DNA of 64,000 bases from positions 50,320 to 114,319 of the forward strand of contig JBBDWR010000011.1 of NCBI GenBank assembly GCA_040902745.1, given 5' to 3'. Positions 13,429 through 51,059 of this stretch are shown here, piece after piece. Both the position numbers and the translations under genes were made by a program. Every line of letters starts with the position of its first letter. Position 1 is the stretch's first letter. The notes under the pieces were generated by a model, which saw only the letters and a list, made by a program, of their open reading frames with translations, did not search any database and had not been told where the DNA came from. Source of the DNA: Actinomycetota bacterium (GTDB lineage: Bacteria; Actinomycetota; UBA4738; HRBIN12).

Positions 13429-14307
13429 TCACGCGTGACGGAGTGGGACCTGTGCAGCCTTGAGATCCGCATCGCGGGCACCCCACCGGATCCGGACGAT
13501 CAGGGCGCGCCCTCCGGCGGGCAAGGACGCCGAGCTAGTCACGAGGCCGACCTGCTTCTCGCTGTCGTCGACGGGCGTACCCGCATCGACCGCGCCGTCG
13601 GCCCGCATCGCGACGACGGCGCGCTGGGGATGCCCGAAGTTGCGGATCTTAGCCACCGATTCCTGCCCCAGGTAGCAGCCCTTCGTGGCGTCGATCACGC
13701 CGCGGGCGGGATCGTCGAGTCCCGCCTCGGCCGGGAGGGAATCCTCGTCCAGATCGACACCGAAGGTCGGCGTCCCGTGACGGATCCGCCAGATGTCGAC
13801 GGCGAGTTGGGAGATCGGTGTCCGGGAGTGGCCGACGTCCGCGTCGCCTGGGTCTGCCAGGAGGTCGGTGCCGGAGCCGAGGATCGATGGCGCGAACGTG
13901 GACCCATCTTGCAGGCCTTCTGCGCGAGGCGCGCAGATCGGACCGATCGGGCTCGGGGAGAGCTCTACATCCGAAGAGAGCACATAGGGCGCGAGCAGCT
14001 CGTCGATCGCGCGAGGCTGCGCGGGATCTTGCACGATGACGAAGTCGTCCGCGCGCCGGTAGACGTGCACGTCGGCCCGGATCCGGCCCGTCGGCGTCAG
14101 CAAGAGCGATCGGGCTGCACCCTGGATCGGCAGGCCGGCGAGCTCGGCGGTCAGCAGATCGTTCAGCCACCGCTCAGCGTCGCCGCCGTGGACCCGGATG
14201 GCCCGCCACGTCCGCCGGTCGACCACGACGTCGTCCGTGGTGGGGTCGCCCTCGAGTTCCGCGACCTGCCGCTCAAGGTCTTCGAACCGAGATGGCGTCG
14301 AGGACAT
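13429..14307 (-). CDS. ygfZ: YgfZ/CAF17-family folate-binding protein (GcvT-like fold, Fe-S cluster maintenance)
   Basis: The C-terminal about 293 aa of the 495-aa track ORF show a YgfZ-like pattern (FGVDLDEDSLPAEAGL...KGCYLGQE). The upstream 200 codons are a low-complexity artifact. Confidence 0.65.
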   Translation of the reverse strand: MSSTPSRFEDLERQVAELEGDPTTDDVVVDRRTWRAIRVHGGDAERWLNDLLTAELAGLPIQGAARSLLLTPTGRIRADVHVYRRADDFVIVQDPAQPRAIDELLAPYVLSSDVELSPSPIGPICAPRAEGLQDGSTFAPSILGSGTDLLADPGDADVGHSRTPISQLAVDIWRIRHGTPTFGVDLDEDSLPAEAGLDDPARGVIDATKGCYLGQESVAKIRNFGHPQRAVVAMRADGAVDAGTPVDDSEKQVGLVTSSASLPAGGRALIVRIRWGARDADLKAAQVPLRHA

Positions 14308-18632: not shown

Positions 18633-19604
18633 GTGAGTCCGTTCCCGTTCGCCGATCCTGCTGCGCAGGCCGTCGGCATCGATGTCGGAGGAACGAAGAT
18701 CGCCGGATATCGGATCTCGGGAGCGGGGGAGATCCTCGCCCATGCCGAGGTCCCGTCGCCCGCCGACGATGCGGACGCCCTCGTCGCGGCCATCGTGGGG
18801 ATCGCGCGGGGGCTGGCGAGGGACGAGGTGCGATGCGTCGGAGTCGGCGCGGCGGGGATGGTCGACCACGCGGGCACGATCCGGTTCTCACCGAACCTCG
18901 CATGGCGCGAGACGGAGCTGCGCAGCCGGATCGCGGACGCCGTCGCACTTCCCACGCACGTCGACAACGACGGGAACGTCGCCGCGTGGGGGGAATTCCG
19001 CGTCGGCGCCGGCCGGGATATCGATCACATGTTGCTGGTCGCACTCGGAACGGGGATCGGGGGAGGCATCGTGATCGACGGTCGCCTGATCCGTGGCGCG
19101 CACGGATTCGCGGGGGAGGTTGGCCACGTCATCGTCGACCCGGACGGTCCCCTGTGCGGCTGTGGCAATCATGGATGCTGGGAACAGATGGCCTCCGGAA
19201 CGGCGATCCAGCGGGCAGGACGGCGAGCGGCTCGAGAGCATCCGCGCAGCCTGCTCGCCGGTCTGGGCGCCGGCGATCCCGAGGCGATCACCGGGCACGA
19301 TGTAACGCGTGCAGCGCGTGAGGGCGATGGGATCGCGCGCAGCGTTCTCGCGAAAGTCGGCCGACATCTCGGGGAAGGACTCGCGGGGTTGGTGAACATC
19401 CTCGATCCGCAACTCATCGTGATCGGTGGCGGCGCCGTCGAGTCGGGTGACCTGCTCCTTGCTCCTGCCCGAGCTGCCTTCCGCGACACGGTGGAGGCGC
19501 CGCAGCACCGGCCGCGACTACCGTCGATCGTGCCCGCGGCGCTGGGGAACGACGCGGGCGGGGTGGGCGCGGGGTTGCTGGCCCTCGAGGAGCTGGCATC
19601 GTGA
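18633..19604 (+). CDS. ROK-family glucokinase
   Basis: ROK signature: DVGGTK N-terminus and the Zn-binding motif CGCGNHGCWE. Confidence 0.85.
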   Translation: MSPFPFADPAAQAVGIDVGGTKIAGYRISGAGEILAHAEVPSPADDADALVAAIVGIARGLARDEVRCVGVGAAGMVDHAGTIRFSPNLAWRETELRSRIADAVALPTHVDNDGNVAAWGEFRVGAGRDIDHMLLVALGTGIGGGIVIDGRLIRGAHGFAGEVGHVIVDPDGPLCGCGNHGCWEQMASGTAIQRAGRRAAREHPRSLLAGLGAGDPEAITGHDVTRAAREGDGIARSVLAKVGRHLGEGLAGLVNILDPQLIVIGGGAVESGDLLLAPARAAFRDTVEAPQHRPRLPSIVPAALGNDAGGVGAGLLALEELAS

Positions 19605-20509
19605 AGCTGGGATTGCTCCTACCCTTGTTCACGGGCGATCCGGGCCGGGTGCGCGAGGCTGCCCAGCGTGCCGAGGAACTCGGGTTCGACGGCGGGTTCG
19701 GGTTCGACCATCTCTTTCCTCCATGGGCGGACGTGCAGCGCCCCTCGCTCGAGGTGTTCACCACTCTCGCCAACGTCGCCGCATCGACGTCGCGGCTCGC
19801 CCTCGGGACGTTGGTCGCTCGCGTGACGATCCGGCCGCCGGGGGTGCTCGCGAAACAGGCCGCCGCGCTCGATCAGCTCACCGATGGGCGGTTCGTGCTG
19901 GCCCTCGGAACCGGTGACGCCGAACGGGATCCCGAAGCTTCCACCTTTGGGTTCCCTTCTCCCACCGCCGCGGAACGCCGGACGCTCCTCGAGGAGACGG
20001 TGGGCGCGTGCCGAGCTCTGTTCGCGGGGGAGCAGTGGCCGGGCGGCGAACAGGTGCCGGCGATCTCGGGACCCCTCGCTCCACCCCCGGCCGGCCCCAC
20101 AGGTCCGCCGATCTGGATCGGGGGAACCTCACCCGCGGCGATCCGGATCGCAGCCAGGCTCGGTGACGCGTGGAACGGTTGGGGGCTGCACGCAGGCGGG
20201 TTCGGGGAGCGCGCGAAACGTCTCGCGAAGCAGACCGCCAGGTTCGGCCGTGTGGTCCCGCCGACATGGGCCGGACTCGCACTCGTGGGCAAGGACGAGG
20301 AGGAGCTTGCGCGGTTGCGCGCCAATCGGGACGAGCGAGGTGCGCCGGGACAGGGCGTCTGGACCGGCACGACGGACGCGTTCGCCGACGAACTCCGCTC
20401 GATCCGCGACGCAGGTGCTTCGTGGGCGATCGTGATGGCCGCCGGTCCCGCCGACCGGGTCGACGTGATCGCTGAGGCAGCTCGTCGCGCCGGCGTTCTC
20501 GGGAGGTGA
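19601..20509 (+). CDS. LLM-class (luciferase-like) F420-dependent oxidoreductase
   Basis: TIM-barrel LLM pattern (FGFDHLF...RLALGTGD...PPIWIGG). Confidence 0.75.
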   Translation: MKLGLLLPLFTGDPGRVREAAQRAEELGFDGGFGFDHLFPPWADVQRPSLEVFTTLANVAASTSRLALGTLVARVTIRPPGVLAKQAAALDQLTDGRFVLALGTGDAERDPEASTFGFPSPTAAERRTLLEETVGACRALFAGEQWPGGEQVPAISGPLAPPPAGPTGPPIWIGGTSPAAIRIAARLGDAWNGWGLHAGGFGERAKRLAKQTARFGRVVPPTWAGLALVGKDEEELARLRANRDERGAPGQGVWTGTTDAFADELRSIRDAGASWAIVMAAGPADRVDVIAEAARRAGVLGR

Positions 20510-20512: not shown

Positions 20513-21118
20513 GTGGACGCGTTGTCATCGGGAGAGCTGAAGCGGCACAAGCGACGGATCCGGGAGGAGATCGTGCGACGGCGGGACGCCGTGCCGGCGC
20601 CCGATCGCGATGCGGCAGCCTTGCGGGTCACCGATCTCGTGGCGAGGATCCTGTCCGATCACAGCGCCCGCATCGTGATGGTGTTCTGGTCGTTCGGCTC
20701 TGAGCTCCCGACGGAAGGGTTGATCGAGCGGCTCGCGGATGAAGGTCGGACGGTCTGCCTGCCGCGCCTCGCGAAGGGGCAGATGCGTGCCCGGACCTAT
20801 CGTCCGGGCGATCCGGTGGTCGAGACGTCGTTCGGGGCCTACGAACCCGCGGATGGCGCGATCGTCGAGGCGGCAGACCTCGATGCCGTGCTCGTGCCGG
20901 CCGTCGCGTTCGATCGCCTGGGTTTCCGGGTCGGCTACGGGGGCGGATTCTACGACCGCTTCCTCCGGGGGGTTCGGCCCGACGCTCTTCGCATCGGAAT
21001 CGGGCTCGCGGCCCAGCGCGTCGAACAGGTCCCCCGAGGGCACTTCGACCTGCCCGTTGACCTCGTCGTTACCGAATACGGGGTCGACGATGTCGGTGGG
21101 CGGCGCTCTTCGACTTGA
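20513..21118 (+). CDS. 5-formyltetrahydrofolate cyclo-ligase (MTHFS)
   Basis: 201 aa with the C-terminal GYGGGFYDR motif typical of MTHFS. Confidence 0.8.
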   Translation: MDALSSGELKRHKRRIREEIVRRRDAVPAPDRDAAALRVTDLVARILSDHSARIVMVFWSFGSELPTEGLIERLADEGRTVCLPRLAKGQMRARTYRPGDPVVETSFGAYEPADGAIVEAADLDAVLVPAVAFDRLGFRVGYGGGFYDRFLRGVRPDALRIGIGLAAQRVEQVPRGHFDLPVDLVVTEYGVDDVGGRRSST

Positions 21119-21194
21119 ACCGCCAGTCAAATCCCTGGTAGAACCCGTGTGCATCACGTCCCCACCCACCGCTGCACGAGGAGGCCGATCCGCG

Positions 21195-22295
21195 ATGGTC
21201 GACGAGCACGAGTCCCCCTTCTACGCGATCCAAGAGTCCTTGGGCGCCACCTTCGTTCCGGAGGGTGGTTGGTTCTGGACGGATACCTTCGGCGACACCG
21301 ACGCCGAGTACAAGGCGCCGCGTGAAGGTGTCGGCATGTGGGATCTGGCTCCCTTGAACAAGTGGGAGTTCACCGGGAAGGATGCGACGGCCGCGATCCA
21401 GCGCATGAACTCCAACGACATCGTGGGGATGCGCCCGGGCAGGGTTCGCTACGGCGCGTTCCTCGATGCCGATGGCCGCATGATCGATGACGGAACCGTG
21501 TACAAGTTCAACGACGAGCGCTATTGGGTGATGACCAACGGGATGGAACGGCGCGAGTACTTCGCCGAGAACACCCAGGGTCTGGACGTGAACATCGAGT
21601 ACCGCTCGTTCGAGCTGCCGAACCTCCAGGTCCAGGGACCGCGTTCCCGGGACCTGTTGGGTTCGCTCACCGACGTCGACCTCGCAGCACTGAAATACTT
21701 CTCGTTCCTCCCCGAGCAGGTGGCGGTCGGCGGCGTTCCGGTGACGCTCTCGCGCACGGGGTTCTCCGGCGAGCTCGGGTTCGAGCTGTTCGTCGCTGCG
21801 GAGAACGCCGATGCCCTGTGGAAGGCTGTGCACGGTGCCGGAGCGCAGCCCTACGGCGTCGGCGTGATCGAGCCGATCCGCATCGAAACAGGCATGATCG
21901 TGACGGACTACGACTACGAACCGAACGCGCGAACGCCTTTCGACTTCAGCATGGACCGGCTCGTCGCGACCGACGTCGCAGGCGCCGAGTTCAACGGCAA
22001 GGCGAAACTCACGGAGATCGCGAAGAACCCGCCGAACCGGTTCAAGACGGTGAAGTGGGACGGCGACGTCACTCCAGAGTACGGCTCGGCGATCACCAAG
22101 GACGGCGAAGAGGTCGGGGTCTGCACGAGCCCCTGTCAGAGCCCGAAGTTCGGCGGCATCGGGCTGGCGATCCTTCGATCGGATGTCGCGATCGACGGCG
22201 AGAAGATCGAGGTCGCACACGAGGACGGAACGCTTCCCGCGACGATCGATGTGCTCGCGATCTACGACCCCGACAAGCGCAAGCCTCGAAGCTGA
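21195..22295 (+). CDS. GcvT-family aminomethyltransferase-like protein (THF-dependent C1 transferase/demethylase-like), paralog 1
   Basis: 366 aa from the internal ATG (MVDEHESPFY...) show glycine-cleavage T-protein family architecture. The upstream 150 codons of the track ORF are an artifact. Confidence 0.8.
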   Translation: MVDEHESPFYAIQESLGATFVPEGGWFWTDTFGDTDAEYKAPREGVGMWDLAPLNKWEFTGKDATAAIQRMNSNDIVGMRPGRVRYGAFLDADGRMIDDGTVYKFNDERYWVMTNGMERREYFAENTQGLDVNIEYRSFELPNLQVQGPRSRDLLGSLTDVDLAALKYFSFLPEQVAVGGVPVTLSRTGFSGELGFELFVAAENADALWKAVHGAGAQPYGVGVIEPIRIETGMIVTDYDYEPNARTPFDFSMDRLVATDVAGAEFNGKAKLTEIAKNPPNRFKTVKWDGDVTPEYGSAITKDGEEVGVCTSPCQSPKFGGIGLAILRSDVAIDGEKIEVAHEDGTLPATIDVLAIYDPDKRKPRS

Positions 22296-22334
22296 GCGCG
22301 TTCGTATCGGCGAGACGAACGAAGGGAAACCCAG

Positions 22335-23438
22335 ATGGCTGATCCGGTGAAGTCCCCGCTCTACGACGTGCAGGCCCAAGCCGGGGCGGAGTTCGAGGAT
22401 TTCGACGGCTTTTTGTGGACGGCACACCTCGGCGACGTGATGGGGGAGTACGAGACTGTTCGCACGGGTGCCGGTCTGTGGGATGTGTATCCGCTGGTGA
22501 AATGGGACTTCTCCGGCACCGACGCGCTTCGGGCGGCACAGCGCGTGTTCACCAATGACGTGGTGCACTTGCAGACGGGCCAAGTCCGCTACGGCGCTTT
22601 CGTCGACGACACGGGCAACATGGTGGACGACGGCACGATCTACAAGCTCACCGACGATCACTGCTGGGTCATGACTAACCTTCCCGGCTACGACGCATAC
22701 TTCGCCGGCGCGATGCAGGGGTTGGACGTGAAGATCGAGGATCGCACCTACGACATGCCGTTGATCTCGCTGCAGGGCCCCGACTCGCGGGCCGTGTTGT
22801 CGAAGGTGACCGACGCAGATCTGTCCGAGCTCCGGTACTTCCGGTTCTGGCCCGAGCGCGTTCAAGTCGCCGGTATCCCCGCGTGGGTGCTTCGCACCGG
22901 ATTCTCAGGCGAGGTCGGCTACGAGTTGATCCCCGATCGCGACCGCGCGGTCGAGCTGTGGAACGCGCTCCAAGCGGCCGGGGCGCGGCCGTTCGGTACC
23001 CACGCGATCGAGATCGCGCGCATCGAGGCGGGCCTGATCGTCGCAGGGGTCGAGTACGAGCCCGGAGTGCGCTCGCCCTATGACCTCTCGCTCGACCGGA
23101 TGGTCGCGATCGACGATCCGGCGTGCGATTTCCTGGGCAAGGACCGACTCACGCAGATCGCCGCCGACCCACCCAACCGTTTCAAGACGCTGCGCATCAA
23201 GGGCACCGCCGTGCCAGGGTACGGAACCGCGGTGATGCTGGGCGGCGAGGAGGAAGTCGGCACACTCACGAGCGCGATCGACAGCCCTCCGTTCGGCGTG
23301 ATCGGACTCGCGGTACTCCGGAGCGATCAGTCCGTCGACGGCACTCAGCTCCAGGTTGCTGTGGAGGGCGGCGCGGCCGAGGCAACGGTGGCGCCCTTGT
23401 CGATCTACGATCCGCAGAAGCGCAAGCCCCGCGGCTGA
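22335..23438 (+). CDS. GcvT-family aminomethyltransferase-like protein, paralog 2
   Basis: 367 aa, about 50% identical to paralog 1 (RYGAFVDDTGNMVDDGTIYK..., both ending IYDPDKRKPR). Confidence 0.85.
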   Translation: MADPVKSPLYDVQAQAGAEFEDFDGFLWTAHLGDVMGEYETVRTGAGLWDVYPLVKWDFSGTDALRAAQRVFTNDVVHLQTGQVRYGAFVDDTGNMVDDGTIYKLTDDHCWVMTNLPGYDAYFAGAMQGLDVKIEDRTYDMPLISLQGPDSRAVLSKVTDADLSELRYFRFWPERVQVAGIPAWVLRTGFSGEVGYELIPDRDRAVELWNALQAAGARPFGTHAIEIARIEAGLIVAGVEYEPGVRSPYDLSLDRMVAIDDPACDFLGKDRLTQIAADPPNRFKTLRIKGTAVPGYGTAVMLGGEEEVGTLTSAIDSPPFGVIGLAVLRSDQSVDGTQLQVAVEGGAAEATVAPLSIYDPQKRKPRG

Positions 23439-23489
23439 TCCGAGCGGCGGTCGTCAGGATCAGGTCGCCCGGATCCGGTGAGCGGAGCC

Positions 23490-25160
23490 TCAGAACAAGC
23501 CAACCGTGCGGCCGTCGGTGTCGATGTCGACCTTCTGGAACGCGGGGGTTCTGCCGAGCCCCGGCATCCGCTGCATGTCGCCGCAGAGCACCACCACGAA
23601 TCCCGCACCGGCACTGGGAACCACGGATCGCACCGGGAGCCAAAAGCCCCGTGGGCGGTTGAGCAGGGTCGGGTCATGCGAGAGGGACAGGTGGGTTTTG
23701 GCCATACAGACGGGGAAGGTCCCGAATCCGAGAGCGTCCATCCGCACGATGTCCTTGCGGGCCTGGGGAAGGAGATCCACGCCCTGTGCTCCGTAGAGCT
23801 GGGTTGCGATCGCCTCGATCTGCTCGGTGATCGGCGTTCCGTTCGGCGTGAGGTGCGAGAAGGTGTTCGGCTGTTCGCACGCCTCGACGACCGCGTTCGC
23901 GAGGGTCACCGCACCGTCTCCGCCGTCGGCGAATCCCTCGTTGACGACGACGGTCTGTGCTCCGGCGGCGGTTGCGAGCCGTTCGATCAGTTCGATCTCC
24001 GCGGGCGTGTCGGTCGGGAACCGGTTGATCGACACCACGCACGGGAGTCCATAGCGCTTCACGATCTCGATGTGGGCGGTCAGGTTGTCCATGCCGTCGC
24101 GCAGCGCGTTCAGATCCTCCGTGCCGAGGTCTTCGAAGCGCTTGCCACCGTGAGACTTCGTGGCGCGCACCGTCGTCACCAGCACCGCGGCGCTCGGCGC
24201 GAATCCGCCGACTCGGCACACGATGTCGCAGAACTTCTGGAACCCGAGATCTGATGCGAAGCCCGCCTCCGTGACCACGTAGTCCGCGAGCTTGAGGGCG
24301 ATGCGATCCTCGATGATGGAGTTGTTCGCGTGGGCGATGTTGCCGAACGGGCCGGCGTGTAGCAGCACGGGCTGGTGTTCAAGCGTCTGCACGAGGTTGG
24401 GCTTTATCGCGTCCTTCATGACCACGGTCATCGCCCCGGCGGCCTGAAGATCCTCCGCGGTGACCGGCTTGCCGTCGCGCGTCTCGGCGACCACGATCCT
24501 GCCGAGTCGGTCCCGCAGATCCCGCAGATCGTTCGCGAGGGCGAGGATCGCCATGATCTCCGATGCCGCAGTGATCACGAAGGAGTTTTCGCGGGGAACC
24601 CCGTGCGTCTTGCCCCCGAGACCGACGACCGTGTTACGCAGCTCGCGGTCGTTCATGTCCATCGCGCGCGGCCAAGTGATCGTTGCCGGATCGATGTCGA
24701 GCAGGTTGCCGTGGTACAGCGACGCGTCGAGGGCCGCGGCAAGGAGATTGTGTGCGGCCGTGACCGCGTGGAAGTCCCCGTTGAAGTGGAGATTGATCTC
24801 CTCCATCGGGACCACCTGTGCGAATCCACCGCCGGTGCCACCGCCTTTGATTCCGAAGACGGGGCCCATGCTCGGCTCGCGCAGGCAGAGCATCACGTCC
24901 TTGCCGATCTTCCCGAGGCCCTGAGTGAGCGATACGGACGTGGTCGTCTTGCCTTCTCCGGCCTTCGTAGGGGTGATCGCCGTCGTGATGACGAGTTTGC
25001 CGTCGGGGCGGTCGGCCAGGCGTTCGAGCGCGGAGAGTTGGATCTTGGCCCTGGAGGCGCCGTAGGGCTCGACCTCGTCGGGGAGCAGTCCCGCTTCCCG
25101 GGCAACGTCGGTGATGGGGCGAAGCTCCGCCTCCTGCGCGATCTCCAGTCCGCTCTTCAT
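23490..25160 (-). CDS. fhs: Formate-tetrahydrofolate ligase (10-formyl-THF synthetase)
   Basis: 556 aa from MKSGLEIAQ with the FTHFS signatures PTKAGEGKTTT and the GGGFAQVVPM region. The upstream 62 codons of the track ORF are an artifact. Confidence 0.9.
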   Translation of the reverse strand: MKSGLEIAQEAELRPITDVAREAGLLPDEVEPYGASRAKIQLSALERLADRPDGKLVITTAITPTKAGEGKTTTSVSLTQGLGKIGKDVMLCLREPSMGPVFGIKGGGTGGGFAQVVPMEEINLHFNGDFHAVTAAHNLLAAALDASLYHGNLLDIDPATITWPRAMDMNDRELRNTVVGLGGKTHGVPRENSFVITAASEIMAILALANDLRDLRDRLGRIVVAETRDGKPVTAEDLQAAGAMTVVMKDAIKPNLVQTLEHQPVLLHAGPFGNIAHANNSIIEDRIALKLADYVVTEAGFASDLGFQKFCDIVCRVGGFAPSAAVLVTTVRATKSHGGKRFEDLGTEDLNALRDGMDNLTAHIEIVKRYGLPCVVSINRFPTDTPAEIELIERLATAAGAQTVVVNEGFADGGDGAVTLANAVVEACEQPNTFSHLTPNGTPITEQIEAIATQLYGAQGVDLLPQARKDIVRMDALGFGTFPVCMAKTHLSLSHDPTLLNRPRGFWLPVRSVVPSAGAGFVVVLCGDMQRMPGLGRTPAFQKVDIDTDGRTVGLF

Positions 25161-25323
25161 GCTTGGCGGTCCCCTTCGTCTGAATGGCCGTTCAACTGGT
25201 TCGGACGATACAACCCTGGCGGAATGGCTCCAAACGTGACACCCGTGAGAACGACCGTGGGTCAGGCCGCCGCGCAGGCAGGGGCGGGCGCGGCCTGCGG
25301 CCGGGGTAGACCCCGAGCGGCGT

Positions 25324-26205
25324 ATGGACCCTCGCGGTTGCCGCACCTACCCTGGAGAGATGGCCGCCACCGAACCGCTGCGCAGGAACGTTGCACGCAC
25401 CAAGATCGTCGCCGTCAACGCAGGCGTGCGGTCGGAGCGGCCCGACACGCTCGCGGCCGAAGAGCCGATGGAGATCCGCGCGGGCGGTCCCGGCCAGGAC
25501 ACCGGTTCGGTTGCCGTCACGATGCGCACGCCCGGTGGCGATTTCGAACTCGCCGTCGGGTTCCTGTTCACCGAGGGCCTGATCCGCGGGCGCGACGAGA
25601 TCGATCGGGTCGCATATTGCGACGACGTCGGACCGGACGAACAGCGCTACAACATCGTGACCGTTCGGCTCGCCCATGCCTTCGACACCGAGTCGGTCCG
25701 CAGGAACTTCTACGCCTCGTCGAGTTGCGGTGTCTGTGGCAAGGCATCGATCGACGACATCCAGGTGCGCTGCGCTCCGGTCGCACCGGGACCGCAGGTC
25801 GAGGGCTCGATCATCGCCGGACTCCCCGATGCGCTCCGCCGGGCACAGCCGGTGTTCGACAAGACCGGTGGCTTGCATGCTGCGGGGTTGTTCGGCGTCG
25901 ACGGCGGCCTGATCAGTCTGCGCGAGGATGTCGGGCGGCACAACGCGGTCGACAAGGTCATCGGTGAGCAGCTGCTGGCCGGCACGGTACCGCTGGCCGA
26001 GCGCATCCTTCAGGTTTCGGGTCGAGTCAGCTTCGAGATCGTGCAGAAGGCCGCGGTTGCCGGGATCCCGGTGATCTCGGCGGTGAGTGCGCCGTCGAGC
26101 CTGGCGGTCGAGGCCGCCGAGGGCTTCGGCATGACCGTCGTTGGCTTCGTGCGCGACGATCGGTTCAATGTCTACTCTCACCCCGAACGCATCGGGACCA
26201 CCTGA
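25324..26205 (+). CDS. fdhD: Formate dehydrogenase accessory sulfurtransferase FdhD
   Basis: FdhD family (SSCGVCGK active-site Cys motif, GRHNAVDK). The alternative start ATG at 25360 has an adjacent GGAGAG. Confidence 0.8.
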   Translation: MDPRGCRTYPGEMAATEPLRRNVARTKIVAVNAGVRSERPDTLAAEEPMEIRAGGPGQDTGSVAVTMRTPGGDFELAVGFLFTEGLIRGRDEIDRVAYCDDVGPDEQRYNIVTVRLAHAFDTESVRRNFYASSSCGVCGKASIDDIQVRCAPVAPGPQVEGSIIAGLPDALRRAQPVFDKTGGLHAAGLFGVDGGLISLREDVGRHNAVDKVIGEQLLAGTVPLAERILQVSGRVSFEIVQKAAVAGIPVISAVSAPSSLAVEAAEGFGMTVVGFVRDDRFNVYSHPERIGTT

Positions 26206-26350
26206 GGTCTCTGGGCGGTCATACGGTCGACCCCCGCCCGGCGGGGTGCGACCAAGGGTCATGGCCGAGGTCCGGATCCCATTTGAACGGGGGTTTAGAA
26301 TCGTGGAGCAACCGGCCGATGCCGGTTGGACATCTCGGAAAGGAGCGCCG

Positions 26351-28282
26351 ATGCCGAACGGGCTCGCGCGACTCACGGAGCCGATGGTTCGCGAGAACGG
26401 CGAGCTGCGCGTCGTCCCCTGGGAGGTGGCCCTGGACCGGGCCGCCGAGGGGCTGCGCGCGGCGACCGATGCGAACGGCGGGGACGGAGTCGGCCTGTTC
26501 AGCTGCTCGAAGGCCACCAACGAGATGAACTTCGTTGCTCAGAAGTTCATCCGCCAGGCCCTTCGCAGCAACAACATCGATAGCTGTAACCGCACCTGAC
26601 ACGCACCTTCGGTCGTCGGTCTGGCGACCGTGTTCGGGGCAGGTGGTGGCACAAGTTCATACGAGGAGGTCGAACACACGGACCTCGTGATCCTCTGGGG
26701 ATCGAATGCGCGAGAGACGCACCCGATCTTCTTCCATCACGTCCTCGCCGGGATCCACAACGGTGCGCGGCTGTTCGCCGTGGATCCTCGGCGCACCTCC
26801 TCGGCCGAATGGGCCGATCTCTGGCTGGGGATCGACGTCGGTACCGACGTCGCGTTGTCGAACACGATGGCGAGGGAGATCATCGCGAGCGACTTGCACG
26901 ACAAGACGTTCATCTCGCGGGCGACCAGCGGGTTCGCCGCGTACGAGAAGAGCGTCGAGGACTGGACGCTCGACCGAGGGGCGGCCGTTACCGGCGTCCC
27001 GGCGGAGGTGATCCGGGAGGCCGCCCACGCGTACGCACGCGCGGACCGCGCGATGATCTGCTGGACGCTCGGGATCACCGAGCACCACAACGCGGTCGAC
27101 AACGTGCTCGCGTTGATCAACCTCGGCCTGCTGACCGGTCACGTCGGCACCTACGGCAGCGGACTCAATCCGCTTCGCGGACAGAACAACGTTCAGGGCG
27201 GTGGAGACATGGGCGCGATCCCGAACAAGCTCCCCGGGTTCCAGGACCTCGAGCGAGATCCGGCCGCGCGCGAGCGGTTCGAGCGCGCGTGGGGGGTTCC
27301 GATCGCTCCGAAGTATGGCTGGCACCTGACGCAGATGTTCGAGGCGATGGAGCGTGGCGAACTGACGGCTGTTTACGTGATCGGGGAGAATCCCGCGAGT
27401 TCAGAGGCCGACATGCATCGGGCCCGCAAGCTGCTGTCCAACCTCGACACCCTGATCGTGCAAGACATCTTCATGACGAAGACGGCGGAGATGGCTGATG
27501 TGGTGCTGCCCGCCTCAGCCTCGTGGGCCGAGACCGAGGGGACGGTGACCAACTCAGAGCGCCGGGTGCAGCGTGTTCGCAAGGCGCTCGACCCTCCCGG
27601 GAACGCACGCGACGACGTCTGGATCATCAACCAGCTCGCGAACCGGCTCGGACTGAGCTGGGGTGAGGTGACGCCGCATGCCGCGTGGGACGAACTCCGC
27701 ACCCTGAGCCCGATGCACGGCGGGATGAGCTGGAAGCGGCTCGAGGAGGAGGGCGGGCTCCAGTGGCCCTGCCCGGACGAAGAGCATCCCGGGACCCTCT
27801 TCCTGCACGAACGGCTCTGGGAGGAGGATCCCGCTGCGCGAGGCGAGCCCGCACCGTTCAGCATCACGATCGACTCCGCGCCCGTCGACGAGCTGACAGA
27901 TGAGTATCCGCTGCGGCTGACGACGGGACGGCGCCTGACCGACTACAACACGGGCGTGCAGACGGGTGGATTCTCCTCACCCCTGCGTCGGCAGGAGTCC
28001 GTCGACATCTCGCCCGAGGATGCGCGAGACCTCGGTGTGGCCGAGGGGGAGATCGTTCGCGTGACCTCTCGGCGGGGGACGGTCGACGCGCCGATCCGGA
28101 TCGACACGGTCCTGCGGCCGGGGCTGATCTTCATGACGTTCCACTTCCCCGAAGAGGTGGAGACGAACAAGCTCACCATCGACGCCACCGATCCCAAGTC
28201 CGGAACCGCCGAGTTCAAGGCGGCGGCGGTGCGGATCGACAAGTTGCCGGACGTGGTTGCCGCCGGCGGGGGCGGATCGTAG
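26351..28282 (+). CDS. fdhA: Formate dehydrogenase Mo-bisPGD catalytic subunit; probable selenocysteine at an in-frame TGA (26597-26599); lacks the N-terminal Fe4S4 domain
   Basis: The ATG is preceded by the RBS GGAAAGGAG. The translation across the TGA reads CNRT-U-HAPSVVGL, which aligns with E. coli FdhF CARV-U-HGPSVAGL. The downstream frame continues as molybdopterin oxidoreductase domains to 28282. The ORF track splits this gene into 26141..26599 and 26630..28282. Confidence 0.8.
26597..26599 (+). other. In-frame UGA, predicted selenocysteine codon
   Basis: Its position corresponds to the Sec/Cys active-site residue of FDH-alpha. Confidence 0.65.
26610..26630 (+). other. SECIS-like hairpin (CGGUCG-UCGGUCUGG-CGACCG)
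   Basis: A 6-bp stem with a 9-nt loop containing GGUC starts 11 nt after the UGA. This is the usual place for a bacterial SECIS. Confidence 0.45.
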
Positions 28283-28301
28283 TGCCCGAGCGGCAGGGGG
28301 C

Positions 28302-30236
28302 GTGTTGGACCTCCAGCTGACCGACGCGCGCGCCACCGTGGAGGAGCGCGCGGCAGTCGACGCGCTGCTCGGACCGCCCGAAACGCCGTGGGACGGCGGC
28401 GAGCGCGATGCGTACGGCGTCCGTGTTTCTCGAACCGGCCGCGAAGCGAGGGAACAACGCCACCTCCTGCTCCCCGCTCTGCACGCCGTGCAGGATCGGA
28501 TCGGGTGGATCAGCGAAGGCGCGTTGAACTACGTCTCGATCCGGCTGACCGTTCCTCCCGCCGAGACGTTCGGAGTCGCCAGCTTCTACGCGCTGTTCGC
28601 TCTGCAGGAGCGCCCGCCGACCGTGGTCCACATCTGCGACGACATCGCCTGTGGATCTTCGGGAGCGGAGCGTCTCTGCGGAGAGATGGAGCGGCTGATC
28701 GGTCCCGCAGGCACACCCACCACCGACGGGGGCACGACCTGGCAGCGCAGCCCGTGTCTCGGCCTATGCGAGCAGGCCCCCGCCGCGCTGGTGCAGCGAG
28801 CGGGGATCGGCGTGACCGACCGGTCGATCGGCTGCGCGCGCGCCGAGGACGTCGTTGCGGCGATCACGTCCCGAGCCGACGAGATCGGCCTCGGTGCCGA
28901 CGTCGCGACGATCGCGCCGCAGACCGCAGACGAGAGCAGGTCCGAACTTCGGCTGCTGCGCCGGGTGGGTGTCGTCGACCCCGGATCCCTCGACAGCTAC
29001 CGAGCCGAAGGAGGGTACGAAGCCCTTCGGATGGCGGTCGAGATGGGCCCGGGCGGCGTCATCCGAGAGCTCAAGGACGCGAGGCTGATGGGCCGCGGCG
29101 GGGCTGCGTTCCCGACGGGGGTCAAGTGGGAGGCCGTGGCGTCGCAGGCGAGTCGCCCGCACTACTTCATCTGCAACGCGGACGAGTCCGAGCCCGGAAC
29201 CTTCAAGGACCGTGTCCTGATGGAGCACGATCCGTTCGCATTGATCGAGTCGCTCACGATCGCCGGATACACCACGGCGTCGGAGCACGGGTCGATCTAC
29301 ATCCGAGGGGAGTATCCGCTCGCCCAGGCGCGACTGCGCCATGCGATCGATGAAGCACGTGAACGCGGGTATCTCGGTGACGACGTGATGGGGGAAGGGT
29401 TCACCTTCGACATCGAGGTGCGCCGCGGAGCCGGCGCCTACATCTGCGGCGAGGAAACGGCATTGCTGAACTCGATCGAAGGCAAGCGCGGCGAACCTCG
29501 AAGCAAGCCACCGTTCCCGGTTTCCCGCGGCCTGTTCGGCAAGCCCACAGGGATCAACAACGTCGAGACGCTCGTCAACGTACTGGAGATCCTCCGGATC
29601 GGAGGCCCGGCATACGCGCAGATCGGCACAGAAGGATCCACCGGCCCGCGGCTGTTCTGCCTGTCGGGCACGGTGGAACGACCCGGACTGTACGAGGTCC
29701 CGTTCGGTGCCACGCTCCGCGACCTGATCGAGCTCGCCGGCGGGGTGTCCGGCGGGCGGCCACTGAAGGCGGTTCTGCTGGGCGGTGCTGCCGGAGCGTT
29801 CGTCCGTCCGCAGGACCTGGATCTGAAGCTGACGTTCGAAGACACTCGGGCGGCGGGGGTCACCCTGGGGTCGGGCGTCGTGATGGCGTTCGACGACACG
29901 GTGTCGCTCCCGGAGGTGCTGCTGCGGATCGCGGCGTTCTTCCGCGACGAATCCTGCGGGCAATGTGTACCGTGCCGTGTGGGAACGGTGCGCCAGGAGG
30001 AGGCGCTCCAACGGATCGTCCGCGGCGCCCAGATCGGCTCGCGGGACGAGGAGCTCGCGCTTCTGGGCGAGATCGCGCAGGTGATGCGCGACGCCTCGAT
30101 CTGCGGGCTCGGTCAGACAGCAGCAAACGCGGTGGTCTCGGCGATCGAGCAGCTCGGTGTGTTCGAAGGCGCGGACACGTCGAACGGGAGTCAGGATCGC
30201 TCCGTCCCCACTCGTACCGAAGAACAGGAGTCCTAG
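28302..30236 (+). CDS. NAD(H)-binding formate dehydrogenase diaphorase subunit, NuoE-like/NuoF-like fusion (FdsG-FdsB)
   Basis: The N-terminus is a thioredoxin-like 2Fe-2S domain (CDDIACGSSG...C). It is followed by NuoF motifs (GRGGAAFPTG FMN site, GAGAYICGEETAL NADH site, ESCGQCVPCR 4Fe-4S). The GTG at 28302 follows AGGGGG. The alternative TTG at 28257 overlaps the previous gene. Confidence 0.85.
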   Translation: MLDLQLTDARATVEERAAVDALLGPPETPWDGGERDAYGVRVSRTGREAREQRHLLLPALHAVQDRIGWISEGALNYVSIRLTVPPAETFGVASFYALFALQERPPTVVHICDDIACGSSGAERLCGEMERLIGPAGTPTTDGGTTWQRSPCLGLCEQAPAALVQRAGIGVTDRSIGCARAEDVVAAITSRADEIGLGADVATIAPQTADESRSELRLLRRVGVVDPGSLDSYRAEGGYEALRMAVEMGPGGVIRELKDARLMGRGGAAFPTGVKWEAVASQASRPHYFICNADESEPGTFKDRVLMEHDPFALIESLTIAGYTTASEHGSIYIRGEYPLAQARLRHAIDEARERGYLGDDVMGEGFTFDIEVRRGAGAYICGEETALLNSIEGKRGEPRSKPPFPVSRGLFGKPTGINNVETLVNVLEILRIGGPAYAQIGTEGSTGPRLFCLSGTVERPGLYEVPFGATLRDLIELAGGVSGGRPLKAVLLGGAAGAFVRPQDLDLKLTFEDTRAAGVTLGSGVVMAFDDTVSLPEVLLRIAAFFRDESCGQCVPCRVGTVRQEEALQRIVRGAQIGSRDEELALLGEIAQVMRDASICGLGQTAANAVVSAIEQLGVFEGADTSNGSQDRSVPTRTEEQES

Positions 30237-30239
30237 ACG

Positions 30240-31286
30240 ATGTCCAGGGTGATGCTGGCTCCGCCCAAGCGACTGATCGACATCGAGGTCGACGGTGCGA
30301 CGGTCCGCGTGCCCGAGGGCTCCACGCTGCTGGATGCGCTGCGCACCGAGGGGGTGGACACGCCCACGCTGTGTTACCTCGAGAACCTGACACCGGTGAA
30401 TGCGTGTCGCGTATGTGTTGTCGAGGTGGAGGGTGCTCGCACCCTGGTCCCTTCGTGCGCCCGCCAGGCTGAGGCGGGGATGAAGGTTCGAACCGATTCC
30501 GAGCGCGTGCGGACGAGCCGCAGGATGGTCTTCGAGTTTCTGGCCTCCAGCGTGGACCTCTCCCTCGCGGGGGAACAGGTCCAGGGGTGGATGTCCGCCT
30601 ACGGCGTGGAGCCGGACCGCTACGGCCCGAGCGCCGAGCCGGCTCCGCTGGGCGAACGCGAGGCCCGCATCCCCGGGCACCACCACGGGTCCGAGGGGGA
30701 AGCGGCCGAGACCGTCGCACAGCCGATCAAGGTGGACAACGATCTGTACGTCCGGGAGTACTCGCGGTGCATCCTCTGCTACAAGTGCGTCGAGGCGTGC
30801 GGTGTCGACGCACAGAACACGTTCGCGATCGCGGTCGCCGGCCGGGGCTTCGATGCGCGGATCTCCACCGAGTTCGACGTCACGCTGCCCGACTCCGCGT
30901 GTGTGTACTGCGGCAATTGCATCGGCGTCTGCCCCACTGGAGCCCTGATGTTCAAGTCCGAGTACGACATGCGCGAAGCCGGCACCTGGGACGAGCAGGA
31001 ACAGACCGTGACCGAGACGATCTGCCCGTATTGCGGCGTCGGCTGTGATCTGTCGCTGCACGTCCAGGACAACGAGATCGTCAAGGTCACGAGCCCGCTC
31101 GACAACTCGGTCACACACGGGCATCTGTGCATCAAGGGCAGGTTCGGGTTCCAGTTCGTGCAGAACAGAGGCCCCAAGGACGCCGACGCCGGCGCCCGCG
31201 GAGTCGGACTCGTGGAGGGCCCCGCCGATCGGATCGCGCGTCAAGCCGGTACCGGAGACGACGCCCCGGAGACGACGCGAAGGTGA
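30240..31286 (+). CDS. Fe-S subunit corresponding to the N-terminal (NuoG-like) part of FDH-alpha: 2Fe-2S, two 4Fe-4S ferredoxin clusters and a molybdopterin-oxidoreductase Fe4S4 domain
   Basis: Cys motifs CYLENLTPVNACRVC, CILCYKCVEACG, CVYCGNCIGVCP and CPYCGVGCDLSLH. Confidence 0.85.
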   Translation: MSRVMLAPPKRLIDIEVDGATVRVPEGSTLLDALRTEGVDTPTLCYLENLTPVNACRVCVVEVEGARTLVPSCARQAEAGMKVRTDSERVRTSRRMVFEFLASSVDLSLAGEQVQGWMSAYGVEPDRYGPSAEPAPLGEREARIPGHHHGSEGEAAETVAQPIKVDNDLYVREYSRCILCYKCVEACGVDAQNTFAIAVAGRGFDARISTEFDVTLPDSACVYCGNCIGVCPTGALMFKSEYDMREAGTWDEQEQTVTETICPYCGVGCDLSLHVQDNEIVKVTSPLDNSVTHGHLCIKGRFGFQFVQNRGPKDADAGARGVGLVEGPADRIARQAGTGDDAPETTRR

Positions 31287-31324
31287 TCCGATGGAGGTTC
31301 TCGCCGCGCTGATCGCAACGATCG

Positions 31325-31921
31325 ATGCCTCCAGTCCTTGACACCACCGGGGTGGTTCTGGCCGGCGGACGATCCACCCGCTTCGGCTCCGACAAGCTCG
31401 TGGCGACCTACCGAGGGATGCCGTTGCTTCACCACGCCGTCCTTCGCCTGATCGAGGTGTGCTCCGAGGTCGTGGTAGTGCTCGCTCCGGAAGGTGCGGA
31501 CCCGACGCTCCCGCCCGGGATCCCCGCGCGGTTCGCGCGCGACGCGACCGAGGGCCAGGGACCGTTGGCCGGGGTGCTTGCCGGACTGCAAGCGACGACG
31601 ACGGATGTGGCACTGGTCGTCGGCGGGGACATGCCCGAGATCTCGACTCCGGTTGTGTTGGAGATGCTCGAGGTCGCGGCGCAGTCGTCCGTTGATGCGG
31701 TCGTCCTCGGCGACGGGGACACGTTCCGCCCGCTTCCGGTGCTGGTACGCGCTGATCGAGGGCGTGAGGTCGCCCACGCGCTACTCCACGACGAGGAACG
31801 CCGGTTGCGAGCCTTCGTCCAAGCACTGCGCGTCGCCGTGATCGACGCGGAGACGTGGCGGCTTCTGGACCCTGCGGGGGCGACCCTGCGCGACATCGAC
31901 ACCCCCGGTGACCTCGGGTGA
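31325..31921 (+). CDS. mobA: Molybdenum cofactor guanylyltransferase MobA
   Basis: LAGGRSTRFG N-terminal NTP-transferase motif and about 198 aa. It is located directly after the FDH genes. Confidence 0.75.
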   Translation: MPPVLDTTGVVLAGGRSTRFGSDKLVATYRGMPLLHHAVLRLIEVCSEVVVVLAPEGADPTLPPGIPARFARDATEGQGPLAGVLAGLQATTTDVALVVGGDMPEISTPVVLEMLEVAAQSSVDAVVLGDGDTFRPLPVLVRADRGREVAHALLHDEERRLRAFVQALRVAVIDAETWRLLDPAGATLRDIDTPGDLG

Positions 31922-31964: not shown

Positions 31965-32915
31965 ATGGAGCGCGTTGTGGTGGCCCTCGGCGGCAACGCC
32001 TTGCTCCGACGGGGCGCGGATGACACCTTCGAGGAGCTGTACCGGTCCGCGCGTGGCGCTGCGGAGAAGGTCGCCGACATCGCGGCCTCCGGTTGGGAGG
32101 TCGTGCTCACCCACGGTAACGGACCACAGGTGGGTCGGATACTCATGCAGCAAGAGGCAGCGCGCGGCTGGGTGCACCCGATGCCGCTGGACGTCTGCGG
32201 CGCCGAGAGCCAGGGGCAGATCGGCTACCTGCTCCAGGTCACGATCGGCGACGTGTTCTTCGAACGCGGTATGCAGCGTCCGGTTGTCACGATCCTCACG
32301 CTCACCCGCGTTCCTCCCGACGATCCCGCCTTCGAAGATCCGACCAAGCCGGTCGGCCCGTTCTTCGAGGAGGAGGAGGCGCAACGCCTCGCGGACGAGC
32401 AGGGGTGGACCGTTAAGCCTGACAGCCACGGCGGATGGAGGCGCGTCGTTCCCTCGCCCGTGCCGTATTCGATCGTGGAGACCCCGGTGATCGCGAACCT
32501 CGTCGGGGACGGTGCGATCGTCATCGCGGCGGGAGGAGGAGGGGTTCCGGTGATCGAGCAGGGGCCCAGGCTGATCGGCGTCGAGGGCGTTGTGGACAAG
32601 GACCTCGCGGGCGCGATCCTCGCATCCGAGGTGGACGCGTCGACGTTGTTGATCCTCACGGACGTGAAGTCCGTACAGACCGGGTTCGGGACCGACCACG
32701 CCGAAGAGGTCCACGGGCTCTCCTTGGACGAGGCGCGCCACCTGCTGGGCGAAGGGGAGTTCGGGGCGGGATCGATGGGACCCAAGGTCCGCGCCGCGGT
32801 GAACTTCGTGGAGGGCGGGAGTCGGCGCACCGCGGTCATCGCCGACCTGGAGGACGCGTTGGCGGCGCTCACCGGTGGTGCCGGAACCACGATCGGCCGG
32901 TCGGTCCCGACGTAG
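31965..32915 (+). CDS. arcC: Carbamate kinase
   Basis: Strong ArcC pattern (VVALGGNAL...THGNGPQVG...AAGGGGVPV). Internal ATG of the track ORF. Confidence 0.85.
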   Translation: MERVVVALGGNALLRRGADDTFEELYRSARGAAEKVADIAASGWEVVLTHGNGPQVGRILMQQEAARGWVHPMPLDVCGAESQGQIGYLLQVTIGDVFFERGMQRPVVTILTLTRVPPDDPAFEDPTKPVGPFFEEEEAQRLADEQGWTVKPDSHGGWRRVVPSPVPYSIVETPVIANLVGDGAIVIAAGGGGVPVIEQGPRLIGVEGVVDKDLAGAILASEVDASTLLILTDVKSVQTGFGTDHAEEVHGLSLDEARHLLGEGEFGAGSMGPKVRAAVNFVEGGSRRTAVIADLEDALAALTGGAGTTIGRSVPT

Positions 32916-35909: not shown

Positions 35910-36533
35910 ATGGCGCTGTTCTCGAAGAAACTTCCGGACGATGTCGCTCGTCGCGTGCCTCCGGGGCAACGCCTCGTCAAGACGTGGCCCGTGCTTCACG
36001 TTGGCTCGATCCCTGCATTCGATTTCTCCACGTGGGATCTGCGGCTCTACGGTGAGGTCGAGGACGAGGTGCGCCTGACCTACGAGGAGCTCAAGGCCCT
36101 GCCGAACACGACCGTGCCCGCGGATATGCATTGCGTGACCGGGTGGACCACGCTGGACAACGCATGGACGGGCGTTGCGTTCTCGACACTTCGTGATCTC
36201 TGCCGGCCCACGGGCGAGGCGGGTTGGGTGATCACCCACTGCGAACAGGGCTACACGTCCGACCTGTCGCTCCAGGTGATGAACGGCGACGACGTCCTGG
36301 TGGCCTGGGCGCATGGGGGGGCGGACCTCGCGCCGGAACATGGATATCCGCTGCGACTCGTGGTTCCCAAGCGTTACGCATGGAAGAGCGCGAAATGGCT
36401 ACGGGGATTGGAGTTCAGCACTCGCAACAAGCGCGGCTACTGGGAGGAGCGGGGGTATCACGTGCACGCGGACCCCTGGCCCGAGGAGCGCTACTCCTAC
36501 TCCGAGCACGCGCGAGCCGACCTCGAGTCCTGA
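35910..36533 (+). CDS. Sulfite-oxidase-family molybdopterin-binding oxidoreductase domain protein (YedY/MsrP-like, no signal peptide)
   Basis: Oxidoreductase molybdopterin-binding domain pattern (HCVTGWT...WTGV...PKRYAWKSAKWL). Confidence 0.65.
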   Translation: MALFSKKLPDDVARRVPPGQRLVKTWPVLHVGSIPAFDFSTWDLRLYGEVEDEVRLTYEELKALPNTTVPADMHCVTGWTTLDNAWTGVAFSTLRDLCRPTGEAGWVITHCEQGYTSDLSLQVMNGDDVLVAWAHGGADLAPEHGYPLRLVVPKRYAWKSAKWLRGLEFSTRNKRGYWEERGYHVHADPWPEERYSYSEHARADLES

Positions 36534-49750: not shown

Positions 49751-49825
49751 CGTCACCCGACGCTTGCGTGACGCGCTGGCGCGGGGGATGCTCGCCAAGG
49801 GACGGCGTGCCCGGCTCGACCGGAG

Positions 49826-51058: not shown

Positions 51059-51059
51059 G

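Follow-up and report, generated by a model that had tools for sequence, protein, structure and literature searches.

A candidate hub for folate-bound one-carbon units and formate in uncultured soil Actinomycetota, with a GcvT-like gene pair and a split selenocysteine formate dehydrogenase

Introduction

In SAR11 bacteria (Candidatus Pelagibacter ubique), oxidation of methyl groups to CO2 with a gain of ATP has been shown experimentally by 14C labelling, and the genes involved comprise gcvT-like, N-methylglutamate and sarcosine-oxidase paralogues that feed methylene-tetrahydrofolate (methylene-THF), followed by folD, fhs and an NAD-type formate dehydrogenase (FDH) (PMC3160333). Here we describe a locus of similar logic in a 64,000-nucleotide stretch of an Actinomycetota bacterium (assembly GCA_040902745.1, contig JBBDWR010000011.1, positions 50,320 to 114,319; “the window”), where genes for 5-formyl-THF cyclo-ligase (MTHFS), two GcvT-like proteins (GcvT-1 and GcvT-2), formate–THF ligase (Fhs) and a selenocysteine FDH (Sec-FDH) with maturation factors lie side by side (Table 1). 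Our tentative reading, held with slightly less than even confidence, is that this locus is a conserved chromosomal hub for THF-bound one-carbon (C1) units and formate, serving an oxidative route to CO2 in uncultured soil Actinomycetota. The pathway type would be one already known; the GcvT-like pair and the FDH appear to be unusual variants of its components.

The likeness to SAR11 “methylovory” lies in this logic and in the fhs, fdhF/fdsB/fdhD/mobA and gcvT-like genes (PMC3160333). The window differs in coming from soil Actinomycetota, in the physical adjacency of its folate genes and FDH, in the subfamily of its GcvT-like proteins, in a selenocysteine FDH whose alpha subunit is split, and in having neither folD nor metF within its bounds; the route is, moreover, predicted here from genes. 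Among Gram-positive methylotrophs, Arthrobacter sp. 31Y has a cluster encoding FolD, Mch, PurU and an aminomethyltransferase as well as a molybdenum oxidoreductase, N-methylglutamate genes are present in Mycobacterium, and such clusters have been interpreted as a linear dissimilatory route via formate (PMC5023230). The window resembles the Arthrobacter cluster in bringing together an actinobacterial aminomethyltransferase-family gene, folate-linked C1 genes and a molybdoenzyme (PMC5023230), but where that cluster relies on FolD and on PurU, whose reaction cannot be reversed and brings no ATP, the window has Fhs and neither of the other two, and whereas those methylotrophs are cultured, the lineage of the window is not.

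A described system close to the GcvT-like proteins is the trimethylamine N-oxide (TMAO) demethylase Tdm (9q5a/9q59), a 790-aa fusion in which a DUF1989/Zn demethylase core supplies formaldehyde through a tunnel to a C-terminal THF domain, shown to turn the channelled formaldehyde into methylene-THF (PMC13619132). Of solved structures, this domain ranks first or close to first for both window proteins, at ~31-33% identity, and shares a C-terminal tail with both; in contrast to the Tdm domain, the window proteins stand free, neither fused to a partner nor next to one.

The FDH resembles FdsABG(D) of Rhodobacter capsulatus (6tg9) and Fdh1AB of Methylobacterium extorquens (7vw6/7e5z) in its NuoE, NuoF and NuoG-N modules, its molybdenum-bis(pyranopterin guanine dinucleotide) (Mo-bisPGD) catalytic part and its FdhD/FdsC-type maturation factor, and it shares with Fdh1B the fusion of NuoE to NuoF, 7e5z_B aligning over the NuoF part. 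Unlike the FdsA-type alpha subunit, that of the window is cut at FdsA residue 306/308 and encoded by two genes, catalytic part first, and its active site has selenocysteine where FdsA has cysteine. An FdsD-like gene was not recognised in the window, and the catalytic piece is nearer to FdhF-type enzymes (7qv7, 503 bits; 1aa6, 457 bits) than to FdsA (407 bits).

Two further systems are similar in part. In Sphingobium sp. SYK-6, the ligM-metF-ligH genes place a GcvT-family demethylase in a cluster with a formyl-THF synthetase gene, and in purine-fermenting clostridia formimino-THF is processed anaerobically, with Fhs working towards formate and ATP and a Sec-FDH following. The clostridial formimino route parallels those relatives of the window that carry glutamate formimidoyltransferase (FtcD; see below), although the clostridial genes are arranged unlike this locus.

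Results

One-carbon genes recur in the variable slots of a conserved backbone

We fetched 80 species-representative loci (L006-L085) and compared their gene order by tblastn, counting for each feature only those loci with enough flank to show it. MTHFS lies directly upstream of GcvT-1 in 69 of 71 loci and the gene of an LLM-class oxidoreductase upstream of GcvT-1 in 59 of 63; the second GcvT paralogue is next to GcvT-1 in 50/73, and Fhs is encoded on the opposite strand within 8 kb of GcvT-1 in 49/52. This order is common to ~80 species-level genomes, across which identity to GcvT-1 falls as low as 56%. The closest relatives are metagenome-assembled genomes (MAGs) from soil surveys, labelled Actinomycetota or Actinomycetes, and related MAGs turn up in the Microflora Danica and SMAG soil sets; the exact GcvT-1 protein was found on one 6.7 kb Logan contig.

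Unrelated genes are equally conserved around this core (ygfZ, ArsA and ROK upstream; carbamate kinase, an EEP nuclease, phosphofructokinase (PFK) and an aldolase downstream), so that synteny alone shows conservation of the backbone and not functional coupling. The initial annotation had described the region as an island and proposed a comparison of its boundaries; when this comparison was run, the whole of 13-36 kb proved to be conserved as backbone in the relatives. GC content is 0.64-0.70 throughout the window, GC and skew of the region are the same as in its flanks, a tRNA scan of the window found none, tRNA-Sec included, and no integrase, transposase, mobility gene or repeat boundary is present among the annotated window genes. 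“Island” is therefore the wrong word. A local dip in GC (0.65) with an AT skew of -0.24 to -0.20 is seen at 49000-51100, around a DUF308 membrane-protein gene (50450-51058).

The backbone has slots that vary, and the genes that occupy them are repeatedly ones of C1 metabolism. FtcD is encoded within 3.3 kb in 58 of 66 of the loci L006-L085: in most relatives the slot between GcvT and fhs holds FtcD (TIGR02024 317.9 against a cut-off of 221) and cyclodeaminase, usually followed by a Glyoxalase_6 gene (FtcD and cyclodeaminase at 12225-13817 in L004/L005). Neither gene occurs in the window, nor in L002, L003 or L006. The slot divergent from fhs (n = 54) carries fdhD/FDH in 27 loci, a DUF294 nucleotidyltransferase in 9, and in 12 a GmaS-like (glutamine synthetase-like) gene followed by MgsA. 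MgsABC is complete in 10 of these 12, the other two ending at the edge of the locus, and together the GmaS-like and MgsA/B/C-like genes are predicted to form the N-methylglutamate pathway of methylamine oxidation (L017, L024, L031, L035, L044, L045, L047, L051, L063, L070 and L078, at ~16-20 kb of the 21 kb loci). The sister sub-clade that bears these genes is mostly without GcvT-2. SoxA/SoxB-family genes fill the same slot in L022 (15915-20685), and in L088 genes of the SoxA family, a SoxG-like protein and a DAO protein stand immediately upstream of fdhD and the split FDH.

Outside the backbone, GcvT-1-type paralogues flanked by a flavin amine oxidase occur in L020 (2284-6941, with an MttB-family methyltransferase and an Oxidored_FMN protein also nearby) and in L034 (3215-12742, with two DAO flavoproteins and an amidohydrolase); in the tree these paralogues form a sister clade. 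In some relatives a RidA-family (Ribonuc_L-PSP) gene lies between the GcvT genes and fhs (L086 2866-3255, L087 3110-3502). RidA proteins quench reactive imines, and such a gene would fit imine-forming amine oxidation nearby.

This recurrent recruitment of C1 genes provides the strongest argument that C1 units from methylated amines or formimino compounds are handled by the locus, and it makes a functional link among the genes of the locus likely.

The GcvT-like pair differs in sequence from canonical T-proteins

GcvT-1 and GcvT-2 are 50% identical, and both fall short of the models for glycine-cleavage T-proteins: GcvT-1 reaches 203.6 and GcvT-2 211.8 against the NF001567 cut-off of 300, with 161.1 and 166.6, respectively, against the TIGR00528 cut-off of 235.85. 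No gcvH or gcvP turned up in the 64 kb window, nor in the ~20 kb surrounding 80+ related loci. Since the gcv genes of actinobacteria can be dispersed, this absence does not settle the matter. Searches with Rfam likewise returned no RNA, including glycine, THF and ZTP riboswitches, either at the gathering threshold over the whole window or at E<=1 on 20.3-26.7 kb. The initial annotation had named canonical T-proteins as part of what would refute it; by the GcvT cut-offs and by the lack of gcvH, gcvP and a glycine riboswitch nearby, the pair does not look canonical.

Named relatives with other substrates fit no better. DmdA was rejected at 131.6 and 137.6 against an NF009133 cut-off of 410, with 94.5 bits to 3tfh. 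LigM/DesA was rejected on partial alignments of 28.8-40.2 bits (cut-offs of 580 for NF047885 and 800 for NF047633) and a Foldseek template-modelling (TM) score of 0.63; those proteins are ~450 aa long, against 366-367 aa here. Tdm itself, ~760-790 aa long, was rejected because the window proteins match only model positions 386-762, or chain residues 419-787, and have no DUF1989/Zn core. Among solved structures, the THF domain of Tdm (9q5a) scores 151.6 bits with GcvT-1 and 131.4 with GcvT-2, about equal to Bacillus subtilis GcvT. The C-terminal tail YDPxK(R/E)(K/R)PR of Tdm recurs in both paralogues, and a DY(D/E)(Y/F) motif is common to Tdm and paralogue 1, in place of LYGQ(E/D)(L/M) in canonical GcvT and GVEY in paralogue 2.

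The structural comparison places the proteins at the level of the superfamily only, since the AlphaFold model of GcvT-1 (pLDDT 80) gives equal TM scores of ~0.75 to GcvT, DMGDH, SoxA, DMGO and DmdA (Foldseek hits including 1yx2, 1woo and 3a8i). D98/D99 of GcvT-1 are invariant and align to the DD pair of T. maritima GcvT at residues 95-96, the position of the catalytic aspartate. The C-terminal domain of GcvT-1 aligns to the E. coli T-protein only up to residue 276, a weak hint as to H-protein dependence.

The best 120 homologues of GcvT-1 are all at least 61% identical to it and all come from Actinomycetota MAGs or unnamed metagenome sequences, and among the matches listed the GcvT-like proteins thus look like a subfamily confined so far to uncultured Actinomycetota. 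A tblastn search of GcvT-1 against 72,556 plasmids of cultured bacteria gave as best matches Tdm and proteins of the “aminomethyltransferase family” at ~31% identity, with nothing closer there. In a neighbour-joining tree the two paralogues separate cleanly into ancient clades, that of GcvT-2 comprising 45 second-position genes. Because the related domain of Tdm captures formaldehyde, we read the pair as putative acceptor enzymes that use folate to take up aminomethyl, iminium or formaldehyde units.

A selenocysteine formate dehydrogenase whose alpha subunit is encoded in two pieces

The catalytic gene contains an in-frame TGA within the motif SCNRT-U-HAPSV, giving the Sec-His pair, and the catalytic arginine in LNPLRGQNNVQG and the motif RGQNNVQG are both present. 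In each of the 29 loci with the gene, this position is TGA; a cysteine codon is found there in none. A hairpin resembling a selenocysteine insertion sequence (SECIS) follows, its inner stem GUCGUC/GGCGAC (26612-26628) starting 15 nt after the U of the UGA and enclosing a GGUCU loop, which resembles the SECIS loop of E. coli fdhF. Across 24 loci RNAalifold returned the consensus GUSGUC-GGUCU-GGCSAC with 11 pairs, and a compensatory swap from G-C to C-G is found in 10 of the 24 sequences, at synonymous codon positions. By these features the FDH is a real selenoprotein, and given the conserved TGA, the covarying hairpin and the catalytic Sec-His and Arg, it looks functional and under selection. 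By its domain content the enzyme is a formate dehydrogenase of the soluble, NAD(P)-linked Mo/W type with selenocysteine.

The catalytic gene begins MPNGLARL, without the N-terminal Fe4S4 domain, behind a strong Shine-Dalgarno sequence GGAAAGGAG, and its start and its TGA are identical in the relatives. The missing domain is carried elsewhere: the NuoG-N-like protein has a Molybdop_Fe4S4 domain at its C-terminus. Under TIGR01591 (cut-off 666) the catalytic piece scores 637.6 over model positions 52-672 and the detached Fe4S4 domain contributes a further 52.6. Residues 12-307/309 of the NuoG-N piece correspond to FdsA 25-304/306 (6tg9_A, 9wxb_B) and the catalytic piece to FdsA 308-931 (6tg9_A), and the cut is therefore clean. 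By these alignments the NuoG-N-like protein is the N-terminal third of an alpha subunit of the FdsA type, detached from the rest. Gene order is permuted (catalytic, NuoEF, NuoG-N), the two halves of alpha flanking the NuoEF gene, and split, start and order are all conserved in the relatives. The initial annotation had listed a complete NAD-type Sec-FDH with fdhD and mobA; these genes are present, and the division of the alpha subunit had been missed.

The best 120 homologues of the NuoG-N piece measure 310-392 aa and share its domain set. A search of 1.84 billion representative proteins returned mostly metagenome fragments; short forms of 362-378 aa and fused ones of 838-976 aa are both seen, at ~40% identity. 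The NuoE-NuoF fusion, of 644-659 aa, matches the FDH beta subunits 6vw7_B, 7e5z_B and 6tg9_B as well as HydB/HoxF-type proteins; comparison with L002 and the junction sequence place its start probably at GTG 28302. In L088, NuoE and NuoF are encoded by two genes. Some relatives carry extra DNA between fdhD and the catalytic gene, which was considered as the site of an unsplit alpha subunit and rejected: it holds unrelated variable open reading frames (ORFs), one recurrent family of which shows a match to the RDD family of membrane proteins, and the split remains. No report of such a split actinobacterial Sec-FDH came up in a literature search.

The MobA-like gene also comes after the FDH genes in L002, L006, L042, L086 and L087, and its product is a probable molybdenum cofactor guanylyltransferase. 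A gene of the AIRS family at 40663-41733 was rejected as SelD: it falls under the SelD cut-off, its best match is ThiL (85 bits, under that cut-off too), and it stands beside thiE. Two other redox enzymes are encoded in the same window as the FDH, a two-subunit 2-oxoacid:ferredoxin oxidoreductase (3298-6346) and a small sulfite-oxidase-family molybdoenzyme of 207 aa (35910-36533).

Orientation and conserved boxes indicate several transcription units

Strand, which the initial annotation had left unmentioned for fhs, bears directly on its picture of one integrated unit. The fhs gene lies on the minus strand, convergent with GcvT-2 across a gap of 51 nt and divergent from fdhD across one of 199 nt. 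At the other end, MTHFS starts 3 nt past the stop of the LLM oxidoreductase gene, which itself overlaps a ROK kinase gene by 4 nt, a spacing from which MTHFS is predicted to be translationally coupled to both. The orientation of fhs, the gaps between genes and this upstream coupling imply at least three transcription units.

Promoter boxes were sought in an alignment of 25 fhs/fdhD intergenic regions together with the window sequence. One, GGACGATACAACCC at 25203-25216, has a -10-like TATCGT on the fhs strand; the other, TACCCT at 25348-25353, ends 6 nt ahead of the fdhD ATG, and TAnnnT is kept there in the relatives. Both may be promoters, and the second box, ending so close to the ATG, suggests a leaderless fdhD transcript. 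With fhs on the opposite strand, promoter-like boxes of their own for fhs and fdhD, and MTHFS tied to the ROK and LLM genes, the single integrated unit of the initial annotation does not stand. A consensus scan, which is uninformative for a high-GC actinobacterium, found 0 promoters, with terminators at the level of shuffled sequence. We also noted short GC-rich inverted repeats in the gap between GcvT-1 and GcvT-2 (22299-22321, CGTTCGT...ACGAACG) and right behind the fdhD stop (26226-26253), as well as a TAGAAT box in front of the FDH catalytic gene, all of them possible internal signals of processing, attenuation or promoter type.

Gene content of the window

Genes were mapped by third-position GC content, since the window has ~67% GC, and then checked with Pfam and NCBIfam profiles (Table 1). 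By these profiles every gene named in the initial annotation is found in its place, ygfZ included. That annotation had also counted metH and ygfZ towards an unusual density of folate enzymes; neither is part of the module, YgfZ being, by family assignment, an Fe-S repair factor.

Table 1. Positions and profile matches of the genes and signals discussed, numbered from the first nucleotide of the window.
Feature	Position	Strand	Evidence and remarks
metH	1-2598	-	truncated by window edge
ygfZ	13429-14307	-	identity confirmed
MTHFS (5-formyl-THF cyclo-ligase)	20513-21118	+	PF01812 124 bits; TIGR02727 equivalog 149.7 vs cut-off 84.9
GcvT-like 1	21195-22295	+	366 aa; PF01571 + PF08669; folate-dependent C1 transferase family
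GcvT-like 2	22335-23438	+	367 aa; folate-dependent C1 transferase family
Fhs (formate--tetrahydrofolate ligase)	23490-25160	-	PF01268 818 bits; NF010030 782.9 vs 652
fhs/fdhD intergenic region	25161-25359	none	two conserved promoter-like boxes
FdhD (FDH accessory sulfurtransferase)	25360-26205	+	PF02634 234 bits; NF001943 315 vs 269
FDH catalytic Mo/W-bisPGD part	26351-28282	+	643 aa; PF00384 + PF01568; in-frame TGA 26597-26599
SECIS-like hairpin	26603-26640	+	RNAalifold covariation
NuoE-NuoF fusion	~28302-30236	+	PF01257, PF01512, PF10531, PF10589; [2Fe-2S], FMN, NAD(H) module of FDH
NuoG-N-like iron-sulfur protein	30243-31286	+	347 aa; PF13510, PF12838, PF22117, PF04879
MobA-like NTP transferase	31325-31921	+	PF12804 (NTP_transf_3) 112 bits; TIGR02665 94.4, under 151.85 cut-off

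Other, ordinary genes of the window encode a thiolase, a glycosyltransferase, an ArsA-like ATPase, PFK, a threonine-aldolase-like lyase and a PASTA kinase, and thiE neighbours the ThiL-like AIRS-family gene. Immediately 3' of the MobA-like gene is a carbamate kinase (31965-32915; TIGR00746 377 vs 358), whose neighbourhood is likewise found in L002, L087 and L088; neither arginine deiminase nor ornithine carbamoyltransferase was seen near it. The LLM-class oxidoreductase (19601-20509) is probably F420-dependent, with only weak similarity to methylene-H4MPT reductase; assignments as F420-dependent glucose-6-phosphate dehydrogenase or Mer were rejected, the protein falling under every specific NCBIfam cut-off. 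Five candidate ORFs (36648-37838, 46727-47518, 52947-53603, 54217-55152 and 60569-61495) have no Pfam match at E<=1e-5, most of them with strongly coding-like third-position GC.

Discussion

On the oxidative reading, GcvT-1 and GcvT-2 would transfer a C1 unit to THF and so give 5,10-methylene-THF; what they transfer would be an aminomethyl or iminium group, or else formaldehyde, from amine or N-methyl oxidases encoded elsewhere. MTHFS, clear in its family assignment, would return 5-formyl-THF to 5,10-methenyl-THF, the level at which FtcD and cyclodeaminase would feed in formimino units in most relatives. A FolD-type enzyme encoded outside the window would take methylene-THF to 10-formyl-THF; Fhs, well identified as an enzyme, would run towards formate and ATP; and the Sec-FDH, equally clear in type, would oxidise formate to CO2 with formation of NAD(P)H. 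The FDH would be assembled from the catalytic piece, the NuoE-NuoF fusion and the NuoG-N/Fe4S4 piece, and matured by FdhD and the MobA-like protein. As fhs and the FDH appear to be read from separate, divergent promoters, the locus is best pictured as a neighbourhood of cooperating units, neither one operon nor a mobile island. The initial annotation had proposed an oxidative demethylation route, and that part of it gains from the relatives' N-methylglutamate, Sox and amine-oxidase genes, which tie the locus to methyl oxidation, while its folD step was not seen.

Several observations count against this reading. The 64 kb window contains no folD, purU or metF (nor glyA), folD is also missing from the ~20 kb loci of the relatives, and the window holds no transporter or substrate-specific oxidase and none of selA, selB, selC and selD. 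In the sub-clade to which the window belongs, the FtcD genes have been lost, and genes of the N-methylglutamate or Sox kind are not found close by. In addition, fhs, fdhD and the GcvT pair fall into separate transcription units, the adjacency of the genes may in part reflect shared ancestry, given that ArsA, ROK and PFK are equally syntenic, the GcvT-like proteins could be the lineage's divergent T-proteins, and the direction of Fhs and FDH is not readable from sequence.

The most serious alternative, which we consider somewhat less likely than the oxidative reading, is that the genes are independent housekeeping neighbours. MTHFS would then serve folate upkeep, the GcvT-like proteins would be divergent T-proteins, Fhs would consume ATP to assimilate formate for purine and fMet synthesis, and FDH would scavenge environmental formate for NADH. 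The conserved 13-36 kb backbone with its unrelated genes, the separate promoters and opposed strands, the coupling of MTHFS to the ROK and LLM genes, the agreement of fold and aligned Asp pair with GcvT, the presence of the FDH module in only 27 of 54 relatives and the failure to find a partner oxidase in the window all accord with it. However, both GcvT-like proteins fall under the GcvT cut-offs, gcvH, gcvP and a glycine riboswitch were not found nearby, and two ancient paralogues kept side by side would be unusual for a T-protein. Nor does this alternative explain why FtcD/cyclodeaminase, N-methylglutamate and Sox genes were inserted repeatedly at precisely this place, or why paralogues stand beside amine oxidases.

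A bolder variant of the oxidative reading, which we regard as unlikely, makes GcvT-1 and GcvT-2 free-standing enzymes that condense formaldehyde or iminium units, whether free or delivered by a protein, with THF to 5,10-methylene-THF, and the locus a general line by which abundant soil Actinomycetota would dispose of formaldehyde as CO2 and gain energy. The pair would be the folate counterpart of the formaldehyde-activating enzyme Fae, acting in trans for several amine or N-methyl oxidases, and the catalytic piece of the Sec-FDH, as a separate polypeptide, would dock onto a NuoG-N/NuoEF electron module independent of it.

Genes of FDH, Fhs and the GcvT family together make up the signature set of the reductive glycine pathway, and Mo/W NAD-linked FDHs are reversible in vitro, so that the locus might run the other way, as the first half of that pathway, from CO2 via formate and methylene-THF to glycine through the GcvT-like proteins. 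We think this improbable. The genes gcvH, gcvP, lpd and folD and those of glycine reductase and the serine branch were not found nearby, the neighbours in relatives are catabolic (N-methylglutamate, Sox-family, amine oxidases, FtcD), the GcvT-like proteins score equally against formaldehyde-capturing domains and T-proteins, and nothing on the reductive glycine pathway in this lineage came up in a literature search. Least probable is that the region was acquired horizontally as a genomic island or that its genes came together by chance, which would suit an FDH module present in about half of the relatives and shifting in position relative to fdhD through small insertions, but not a composition like that of the flanks, the lack of a tRNA, integrase or repeat boundary in the window, or an order kept in ~80 species-level genomes with GcvT-1 identity down to 56%.

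If the housekeeping alternative is true, the locus is ordinary. A GcvT-fold protein that stands free and is akin to the Tdm domain which captures formaldehyde would be useful in its own right, the enzymatic condensation of formaldehyde with THF being a sought-after step in synthetic C1 assimilation. The natural fission of an FDH alpha subunit at the boundary between its Fe4S4 and Mo domains bears on how modular such CO2/formate catalysts are in their catalytic and electron-transfer parts. And if the oxidative reading is true, widespread uncultured soil Actinomycetota would burn methyl and formimino groups via folate to formate and CO2, gaining ATP and NADH; the “methylovory” of marine SAR11 would then extend to soils, with a bearing on the turnover of methylated amines and formate.

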